Shown: positions 36,873 through 37,019 of the stretch, one piece after another
Numbering within the stretch: position 1 is the stretch's first letter
How the letters are laid out: every line of letters begins with the position of its first letter
From: Minisyncoccota bacterium
Lineage (GTDB): Bacteria > Patescibacteriota > Minisyncoccia > Minisyncoccales > RBG-13-42-11
Length of the DNA stretch: 64,000 bases
Assembly: GCA_016782605.1 (NCBI GenBank)
Contig: JADHYE010000001.1
Span: 11,128 to 75,127, forward strand
Direction of reading: 5' to 3'
Notes under the pieces: model-generated
The model's database searches: none
The model's input: only the letters and a program-made list of their open reading frames with translations
Told to the model about the DNA's origin: nothing
Program-made: the position numbers and the translations under genes

Positions 36873-37019
36873 CCCCGTATATCAACTTCCAGAACCAAAC
36901 GCCGTTAGGTGCGTTTTAGCCTGTAAGCGGTTATTTGATAATAATTTCATATTTACAACCATTTGAGTTATGCCCGGCGTTTGTTTAGAACGCACCTTAC
37001 TGGAAGTTGTATTACGGGG
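36873..37019 (-). mobile_element. family A element, copy A3 (family A arms, unrelated 147-bp body)
   Basis: Arms are ccccgtatatcaacttccag / ctggaagttgtattacgggg. The interior is unrelated to the other 7 copies. Flanks are cata (36869-36872) and catt (37020-37023). Confidence 0.7.

Follow-up and report, generated by a model that had tools for sequence, protein, structure and literature searches.

A3 is a 147-nt element at positions 36873-37019 of a 64,000-nt stretch of contig JADHYE010000001.1 from a Minisyncoccota bacterium (the whole stretch is called the window below), in which 20-nt inverted arms enclose a 107-nt interior. Comparison with longer relatives in metagenomes gives good support to the reading of A3 as a non-autonomous internal-deletion derivative, comparable to MITEs (miniature inverted-repeat transposable elements), of an element that carries a gene for a GIY-YIG nuclease. 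We consider it probable that A3 is a relic of such an element in which a crossing pairing has replaced a lost stem, that a nuclease acting in trans reads the resulting fold, and that a short open reading frame (ORF) through the relic relays ribosomes to the gene downstream. All genes at this setting are on the minus strand, and A3 sits between the stop codon of pheT and the ATG of gyrB.

Two pairs of segments in the interior of A3, P1 with P1' and P2 with P2', were each found to be perfect 9-bp complements arranged in the crossing order P1-P2...P1'-P2'. Of 5,000 shuffles of the interior, 70 contained any 9-bp complementarity and none combined two helices of at least 8 bp in crossing order. The original prediction, which was made from the sequence of the window, had suggested looking for other copies of this interior, and about 24 close relatives (the A3 type) were found at different genes in other genomes. 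In an alignment of these 24 copies, 98.7% of the cells were standard pairs, compared to approximately 40% paired in slid controls. In four pairs, including three in P2, both partners had changed; in P2, AGGT/ACCT was replaced by ATGT/ACAT, AAAT/ATTT, and GGCG/CGCC, and none of 500 shuffles matched these values. The paired ends were conserved and the loop was variable, and both pairings were retained together in 22 of the 24 copies and in at least eight other lineages. Other short lineages kept the P1-P2...P1'-P2' order despite very different P2 sequences, of which at least eight distinct ones occurred in short elements, for example, AGGTGCGTT, ATGTGCGT, AAATGCGTTTT, GGCGCGTTT, TTATTCGCAA, GTTCTTGGT, ATGTTTGT, GTTTTCGG, and ATTTTTCGC. 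These results demonstrate that A3 has two crossing helices backed by covariation, in the strand order of an H-type pseudoknot. The crossing pairs described in the original prediction are therefore real, far beyond chance, and conserved, and the covariation that it proposed as a check was found in the compensatory changes of P2; the complementarities, whose lack of conservation elsewhere it had named as contrary evidence, were conserved in the 24 A3-type copies.

An alignment across lineages with MAFFT set P2 in different registers, so pairing was assessed sequence by sequence, by counting helices of 6 bp or more, and the formal pair count was limited to the A3 type. Two stems side by side were found in 31 of 33 full-length elements and in 12 of 15 elements of intermediate length (210 to 250 nt), and the crossing order was found in 46 of 98 short elements. 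In A3, each helix alone adds about 12 kcal/mol and each duplex is worth -13.5 kcal/mol; the folds with arms plus P1 and with arms plus P2 are isoenergetic, at -36.2 and -36.5 kcal/mol. This equality, the partial complementarity of P1 and P2 to each other (a 6-bp local hairpin), and linkers that are tight for a classical H-type pseudoknot would all suit a different arrangement, in which P1/P1' and P2/P2' are mutually exclusive, alternate with local AAACGC/GCGTTT hairpins, and provide a two-state switch or a redundant way to close the junction rather than a true pseudoknot. We regard such exclusive pairing as quite unlikely, given that both pairings persist together across the A3 type and the other lineages, that the parent element holds both of its stems simultaneously, and that coexistence is compatible with a rough estimate of the geometry.

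The parent element was recognized from about 32 elements of 309 to 315 nt, with arms identical to those of the family, in Patescibacteria metagenomes. On the gene strand, a single ORF spans each full-length element; it opens at the flanking ATG, duplicated from the host, and closes with a TGA within the 3' arm, 10 nt ahead of the regenerated host ATG. The arms thus code for the residues at either end of the product of a selfish mini-gene, and this gene takes its start codon from the host, in the form of the duplicated ATG. Of 31 distinct full-length copies, 29 have an intact ORF, and its product of approximately 101 amino acids (aa) has the consensus MPSNTTSSVFFYVYVLESLKDGKRYIGYTNNLKRRIEEHKKGLSFATKFRLPFKLIYFEGCLNQEDAKRRENYLKTTQGRRFLGLRL..Y.R...AFGSGS. 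It matched the Pfam GIY-YIG family (PF01541) with an E value of 4e-16 and 59.4 bits, compared to a cut-off of 22.6. Such proteins form at least 946 clusters at 90% identity, and those of Patescibacteria bear the names "excinuclease ABC subunit C" or "GIY-YIG nuclease family protein." The nearest solved sequence was the UPF0213 protein BH0048 (E value, 7e-8), and NCBIfam gave a sub-threshold match to group I intron endonucleases (TIGR01453; 25.6 bits versus a cut-off of 56). An AlphaFold model of the protein (mean pLDDT, 72) contained the GIY-YIG core, with low confidence for the arm-encoded residues 1 to 7 and 97 to 102, and its structural neighbors were BH0048 and the Slx1 nuclease domain. 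When 29 full-length copies were folded with RNAalifold, the arms formed 7 plus 10 bp around a conserved 3x3 mismatch, and two long-range stems lay side by side, one flush against each arm, with compensatory changes at nine pairs.

A3 was then placed on this parent by profile searches in both directions. The full-length profile matched A3 past its arms, with model positions 272 to 319 corresponding to window positions 36915-36869 (E value, 1e-9) and model positions 1 to 31 to 37022-36987 (E value, 3e-5); it matched family A, the seven further copies in the window, in the arms only. Conversely, a profile of the 24 A3-type copies was collinear with full-length elements in nhmmer searches, the left arm, P1, P2, loop, and P1' aligning to full-length positions 315 to 201 (E values down to 2e-11) and P2' plus the right arm to positions 29 to 4 (E value, about 1e-5). 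These collinear matches to both ends of the gene indicate that the A3 type is the parent minus roughly positions 30 to 200. A3 itself retains both arms and the first 10 nt or so and last 95 nt or so of the interior, with approximately 170 nt lost, and its ORF begins MPRNTTSS and ends AFGSGS, where the parent N terminus reads MP[S/R]NTTS. The 46-aa product of that ORF matched neither PF01541 nor any other Pfam domain, which makes A3 a relic rather than a member of the GIY-YIG superfamily. Its interior is thus made up of a degenerate C-terminal third of the nuclease gene and a few codons from the N-terminal part. The interior had been described as unrelated, and this stands relative to family A, with whose interior no convincing alignment was obtained; it does not stand more generally, since the interior is homologous to the last 115 nt or so and the first 25 nt or so of a GIY-YIG nuclease gene. 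The original prediction had listed a fragment of some known gene or RNA among the outcomes that would speak against it, and the collinearity of the A3-type profile with the nuclease gene indicates such a fragment (E values, about 1e-11 and 1e-5).

The deletion also offers an origin for the crossing order. The new partner P2 sits where full-length copies carry ATGACGTTTG or AGTGCGTTTG, already partly complementary to P2', since both parental stems share a GCGTT/AACGC core. The suggestion that A3 might be a pseudoknot or a recombinant of two hairpin elements was near the mark, in that the parent has two separate hairpins which the deletion has interleaved. The complementarities of A3 could also be nothing but a passive relic, if the shared stem core leaves cross-complementary pieces in any deletion derivative: P1 (CAAACGCC) and P2' (GAACGCAC) have AACGC in common, and with AGTGCGTTTG at the place of P2 in the full-length copy L064 (loci outside the window are given as L numbers), approximately 7 bp of P2/P2' complementarity could pre-exist. 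We consider this extremely improbable, because P2 has undergone compensatory double changes, other lineages reach the same topology with wholly different P2 sequences, the pairing extends past the shared core, and the paired ends are strongly conserved in copies whose loop is not.

Comparison with family A shows what the different members have in common. As originally proposed, the arms of A3 match those of family A, from which they differ by 1 to 3 mismatches, and the seven family A copies have mutually similar 92-nt interiors. The A3 arms are complementary at 17 of 20 positions, with the central 3x3 mismatch conserved, and a difference between the two groups is compensated on both arms (AACTTCC/GGAAGTT in A3 versus AACATCC/GGATGTT in family A). 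Family A folds with two small local hairpins, one flush against each arm. What family A, the A3 type, and the full-length elements share is an arm helix flanked at its inner end by a stem on either side. The proposal that the arms and not the cargo are the conserved unit was thus incomplete: the arms belong to this unit, together with the stem beside each of them, and in the parent the unit lies within coding sequence.

The distribution of the family was determined with two patterns. A two-arm pattern with no flank condition found 39 loci in metagenome-assembled genomes (MAGs), which were labelled Saccharibacteria, Terry-, Portnoy-, Curtiss-, and Liptonbacteria, Patescibacteria group, and, in a few cases, Proteobacteria. 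A one-arm pattern found at least 120 metagenome contigs and consisted of a flanking CAT plus an exact arm, so that the upstream ATG and the conservation of the arms in that set partly reflect the pattern itself. From all loci, 157 elements were extracted, of which 146 were distinct. The host MAGs of L004, L006, L008, L020, L028, L039, L013, and L031 are labelled Gammaproteobacteria or Pseudomonadota and present A+T-rich, Patescibacteria-like contexts; either these labels are wrong or the element may have crossed phyla. A scan of viral contigs gave isolated arm-like matches only and no complete element.

The sites occupied by the family are those of an element that inserts at start codons. Among the copies found without a flank condition, including those of the window, 45 of 47 adjoin the start codon of a plausible gene. 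Sufficient sequence was available at 127 sites, and at 100 of these an ORF of 100 codons or more begins no more than 2 nt from the junction, compared to 21% for all TATG sites in the same loci, and the element is co-directional with the host gene in every copy. TATG is duplicated at 94 of 141 family sites, and the duplicated flanks seen were TATG, AATG, CATG, ATGA, TGAA, TGTA, TAAA, ATG, and TTG; because they vary, they represent true target-site duplications of 3 to 4 bp. At A3, the flanks AATG and TATG agree at 3 of 4 bases, and the 5' flank of AATG rather than TATG that had been predicted was confirmed on the gene strand (37023-37020), the downstream flank being TATG. Real orthologous sites without the element, holding one TATG or ATG apiece, agreed with the reconstructed empty sites. 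This was seen for a full-length copy (filled in L070 and empty in L087, with 93% flank identity), for the trmD copy of the window (empty in L080), for a copy in L080 (empty at window positions 10017-10119), and for an A3-type copy (filled in L018 and empty in L046). An empty pheT-gyrB junction was sought and none was found; in the reconstructed empty site, the gyrB ATG is 9 nt beyond the pheT stop. Contig L170, from a second sample, ends exactly where the upstream arm of A3 ends, which indicates that the same insertion is present in that sample and broke its assembly.

Two loci have compound arrangements. L061 (2412-3068) carries short, short, full-length, and short elements in tandem with CATA between them, an array in which each insertion re-creates the target. 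In L159 (2156-2386, minus strand), a 77-nt mini-element with arms CCCAGTAGAGCAACTTCGAC and GTCGAAGTTATCATACTGGG and the target duplication TTTA is nested between P1' and P2' of an A3-type element. An internal ATGCCCAG-like motif considered as a candidate guide was rejected, since its occurrences turned out to be nested copies or remnants of coding sequence (T-Q-G and R-E codons).

In the mechanism that we propose, the DNA strand of the parent would fold as a three-way junction composed of the arms and a stem flush against each of them. A deletion would have removed the original 3' partner of the stem beside the 5' arm, and a segment in the loop of the other stem, partly complementary beforehand, would have become its new partner, producing the crossing order. 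The stem on each side of the arm junction would be the cis feature recognized, on single-stranded or extruded DNA, by an Slx1/UPF0213-like nuclease that full-length copies supply in trans. Since such a nuclease would need a stem on each side of the junction, selection would keep both pairings in a relic that no longer codes for it. The nearest enzymes that have been characterized, Slx1 and the SsnA protein described below, point to DNA, and we rank recognition of a folded single DNA strand by a nuclease in trans as the most likely reason for which the pairings have been kept.

Both strands of A3 fold well, as RNA and as DNA, and the crossing helices could instead act in mRNA, where the arms and the pseudoknot would compact the inserted 147 nt. 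Such a structure could draw the upstream initiation region close to the gyrB AUG, could tune re-initiation, or could be a processing site or stabilizer of the pheT-gyrB transcript. The element is co-directional with its host and almost certainly co-transcribed, its gene-strand RNA folds far better than shuffles (-50.2 kcal/mol; z = -4.5), the two AUG copies pair together at the base of the arm stem, and the enrichment of open frames reported below points to RNA- or translation-level selection on at least part of the family. A role in mRNA nevertheless appears unlikely. Wobble-type mismatches showed no strand bias (17 versus 12 in the arms and 11 versus 7 in P1/P2, with comparable numbers in the A3-type alignment and in the full-length fold), so that G-U-type mismatches are not favored on the gene strand and DNA fits better than RNA. 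Moreover, the other strand can adopt the fold equally, a translating ribosome would have to unwind the entire structure, and no slippery site precedes the pseudoknot. A3 had no match in Rfam 15 at either the gathering or a permissive threshold, the best being drum RNA with 15.7 bits versus a gathering threshold of 43. Finally, the closest characterized enzyme of this type leaves RNA untouched (PMC11893778).

Several observations weigh against the reading of A3 as a relic whose fold is read in trans. About half of the short elements lack a crossing pair at the 6-bp threshold, and family A has two small local hairpins in its place. The linkers of A3 are short (2, 5, 3, and 2 nt), so that the coexistence of P1 and P2 is plausible by a rough estimate only. 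No full-length copy was found in the approximately 74 kb of this genome that was searched (the window plus 10 kb beyond it); in L061, full-length and short copies are present on one contig. That the nuclease moves the element or reads its fold is plausible from analogy, and the 4-bp duplication is not accounted for by the action of a GIY-YIG enzyme. The one-arm set overestimates both arm conservation and the frequency of an upstream ATG. Lastly, two thirds of the short elements close their ORF early, from which it follows that a translational relay is not the sole way by which host genes stay expressed.

The relay itself was assessed from the ORF that runs from the upstream ATG through the element to the TGA of the far arm (36882-36884 in A3). 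This ORF is 46 codons long in A3 and 41 codons long in family A, and that of A3 ends 10 nt ahead of the gyrB ATG. Among the short elements, the frame was correct in 53 of 96 and was open through to the arm TGA in 30 of 96 (A3 included), compared to 3.75% of interior shuffles. A universal relay ORF was thus ruled out, as most short copies close the frame early, and a statistical enrichment remains. For A3, the sequence suggests that the ORF passes ribosomes to gyrB, which would begin at the upstream ATG, end translation within the arm, and then re-initiate at gyrB. Of the 68 gene starts in the window, 6 had a Shine-Dalgarno-like motif; at many starts a -10-like box stands 6 to 8 nt before the ATG, and others closely follow the preceding stop codon, which suggests widespread leaderless or coupled translation in this genome. 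In a genome almost without Shine-Dalgarno motifs, insertion anywhere but exactly on the ATG would part a gene from its initiation signal. With the ATG duplicated and the ORF ending 10 nt before the second ATG, ribosomes could be handed on and the insertion tolerated. A scan of positions 36700-37200 found no sigma-70 promoter and no terminator. An outward extended -10 box in the 3' arm (TGATATACT) was rejected as a candidate, being 4 nt from the ATG versus 6 to 8 nt for the apparent native boxes.

Features of A3, of its setting, and of family A in the window, as located from the sequence
Feature	Positions	Strand	Details
Family A copy	5021-5152	-	Duplication TGAA on both sides; host start restored as GTG, with the G that ends the arm
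Family A copy at trmD start codon	13349-13480	-	Orthologous site empty in L080
Gene starts surveyed for initiation motifs, examples	13982-14440, 29890-30408, 49878-51074, 62216-62947
gyrB, host gene	34940-36871	-	Start codon is the insertion target
Downstream copy of target duplication	36869-36872 (read 36872-36869)	-	TATG on gene strand; ATG 36871-36869 is the gyrB start codon
Left arm on + (3' arm on gene strand)	36873-36892	-	CCCCGTATATCAACTTCCAG on +; CTGGAAGTTGATATACGGGG on gene strand
Relay ORF	36882-37022	-	MPRNTTSSKVRSKQTPGITQMVVNMKLLSNNRLQAKTHLTAFGSGS followed by stop; 46 codons; retains parent MP[S/R]NTTS and AFGSGS ends; no Pfam domain
P1	36896-36904		CAAACGCCG on +; homologous to GGCGTTTGG (A-F-G) near 3' end of parent ORF
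P2	36907-36915		AGGTGCGTT on +; substitute partner of P2'; from segment adjoining P1, AGTGCGTTTG in full-length copy L064
Variable A+T-rich loop	36916-36974		Degenerate leftover of C-terminal third of nuclease gene
P1'	36975-36983		CGGCGTTTG on +; homologous to GCCAAACGCCG (D-A-K-R-R) segment of parent gene
P2'	36989-36997		AACGCACCT on +; from N-terminal coding part of parent, 5' strand of its first stem
Right arm on + (5' arm on gene strand)	37000-37019	-	CTGGAAGTTGTATTACGGGG on +; CCCCGTAATACAACTTCCAG on gene strand; codes P-R-N-T-T-S
Upstream copy of target duplication	37020-37023 (read 37023-37020)	-	AATG on gene strand; 9 nt past pheT stop; ATG 37022-37020 starts the relay ORF
pheT, upstream co-directional gene	37032-39050	-	Stop codon 37034-37032
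Family A copy at membrane-protein gene start	41791-41922	-	gatA stop codon now inside arm
Family A copy at rseP-like start codon	47114-47245	-
Family A copy at frr start codon	47812-47943	-
Family A copy at rpsI start codon	54741-54872	-
Family A copy at rpsD start codon	57054-57185	-

Six of the seven family A copies have TATG on both sides, the downstream ATG being the start codon of a real gene. At 41915-41922, where the gatA stop codon lies within the arm, the insertion struck an overlapping gene junction and changed the last residues of GatA. Upstream of two copies (41923-41945 and 47246-47268), the sequences are alike beyond the element and read AGAAATATCA[A/G]AAT[T/A]ATATG; the native promoters may be alike, or the element may extend further in those copies. 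Just past the end of the window, L173 of the same genome has short copies at 692-823 (rplB/rpsS) and 4428-4562 (rplE/rpsH), and the relay ORF of the rpsD copy was called in L173 as a 41-aa gene. ENA contig NODE_753 does not contain the whole of the window. At A3, automatic gene calling begins gyrB at a TTG inside the element (34940-36898), giving a product of 652 aa versus 643 aa.

Other repeats are present in the window. A second repeat at start codons, TCGAATTTCTACTACCTAGT followed directly by ATG, occurs at 5787-5826, 52229-52276, and 59895-59932, preceding genes that start at 5789 (minus), 52266 (plus), and 59905 (minus), and the same motif stands before an ATG that neighbors an element in L003, from a Terrybacteria genome (flank near 1730). 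A conserved TTAATTAGGTATTACCACT followed by ATG lies upstream of rplJ, rplK, and rpsK (3576-3617, 33564-33605, and 57631-57672), and a 96-nt repeat (96% identical) with a AAGAGATTTATCTCTT hairpin inside lies upstream of two of these genes, at 3632-3727 and 33644-33739. At 15133-15262, a 65-nt unit is repeated twice in tandem (97% identical), with GC-rich and AAGAGGTTTACCTCTT hairpins.

We tentatively suggest, as a possibility short of an even chance, that the A3 family is an undescribed minimal autonomous element of approximately 312 bp, in which one Slx1/UPF0213-like GIY-YIG ORF doubles as the folded ends, and which integrates at start codons, borrows the initiation codon, and hands ribosomes back to its host gene. 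If so, it would be among the smallest self-encoding mobile elements known, insertion-sequence-like and driven by a GIY-YIG enzyme, and relics such as A3 would show that this enzyme reads junction geometry and not sequence, since a pseudoknot replaces the lost stem; the A3 type would amount to a natural compensatory-mutation experiment on the structural needs of the system. It would also give a natural account of the many small Patescibacteria proteins named "excinuclease ABC subunit C" or "GIY-YIG nuclease," would tie the recently described Ssn single-stranded-DNA nucleases to active mobility, and would reveal a route by which a parasite settles at the start codons of genes that are essential (gyrB, trmD, frr, and ribosomal protein genes) in reduced, Shine-Dalgarno-poor genomes. 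In practical terms, the elements break metagenome assemblies, as where L170 ends in the A3 arm, and produce miscalled gene starts, as for gyrB.

A literature search, whose coverage excludes some journals, found no description of a start-codon-targeting GIY-YIG element or of a MITE from the candidate phyla radiation (CPR). Bacterial MITEs, such as the Correia elements of Neisseria, are short, non-coding, multi-copy, gene-adjacent, and co-transcribed, have terminal inverted repeats and short target duplications, and arise from a coding parent through internal deletion. A3 has the structural features of a MITE: inverted repeats, a target duplication, 147 nt with no mobilizing gene, filled and empty sites, and a longer coding relative with the same ends. 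Its coding partner, however, is not a canonical transposase, the parent coding for a GIY-YIG nuclease rather than a DDE transposase. The A3 family also differs from MITEs in targeting the start codon in a fixed orientation, in conserving subterminal stems besides the inverted repeats, and in having a through-reading ORF in many copies.

The REP/BIME-RAYT and IS200/IS605-PATE systems are small structured repeats moved by a small nuclease that reads folded single-stranded DNA, and in them non-autonomous derivatives outnumber the gene. Their enzymes are HUH tyrosine enzymes, and these elements have subterminal hairpins and lack inverted terminal arms and target duplications, whereas the A3 family has both, with a GIY-YIG enzyme. 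Homing endonucleases of the GIY-YIG type, free-standing or intron-encoded (among them I-TevI and the products of the T4 seg genes), have a separate DNA-binding domain and are copied by repair into one cognate allele with no target duplication. The A3 family resembles them as a selfish nuclease gene inserted such that the host gene is spared, and it departs from them in a protein with no DNA-binding domain, in occupying many unrelated genes per genome, and in its target duplications. Slx1, which cuts branched DNA and works with Slx4 in eukaryotic repair, is together with UPF0213 the best structural and sequence neighbor of the parent protein, and the cutting of branched DNA fits recognition of a junction; we know of no UPF0213 (YhbQ-like) protein that is mobile or repeat-flanked. 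In H-type RNA pseudoknots, the strands follow the order stem 1 5', stem 2 5', stem 1 3', stem 2 3', and the strand order of A3 is identical. A3 differs in a middle loop of about 59 nt, in the closing of the whole by a third helix, and in belonging to no Rfam family.

Among published systems, the one that the A3 family appears to resemble most closely, by analogy, is the Ssn/NTS system (SRM), on whose insertion-sequence-like architecture its authors remarked (Chenal et al. 2025 Nat Commun; PMC11893778). SsnA, a single-domain GIY-YIG protein of 94 aa, binds and cuts its own hairpin repeat solely in the form of single-stranded DNA, acting on neither duplex nor RNA; the repeat flanks the SsnA gene and is also present in hundreds of solo copies (PMC11893778). 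Unlike the Ssn repeats, those of the A3 family are 20-nt inverted arms inside the ORF that code for its first and last residues, and the family has 3- to 4-bp target duplications, start-codon sites, and directly visible presence/absence polymorphism. Its fold is a three-way junction or a pseudoknot rather than one hairpin, and its hosts are Patescibacteria. The parent protein has its nearest solved relative in UPF0213/Slx1, and it is likened to Ssn by architecture and not by an assignment to cd10448. In both systems, a single-domain GIY-YIG protein of about 100 aa is encoded by a gene bracketed by its presumed target repeat, many solo copies of the repeat are scattered near genes, and the recognized form is a folded single DNA strand, as demonstrated for Ssn and as we infer for the A3 family.

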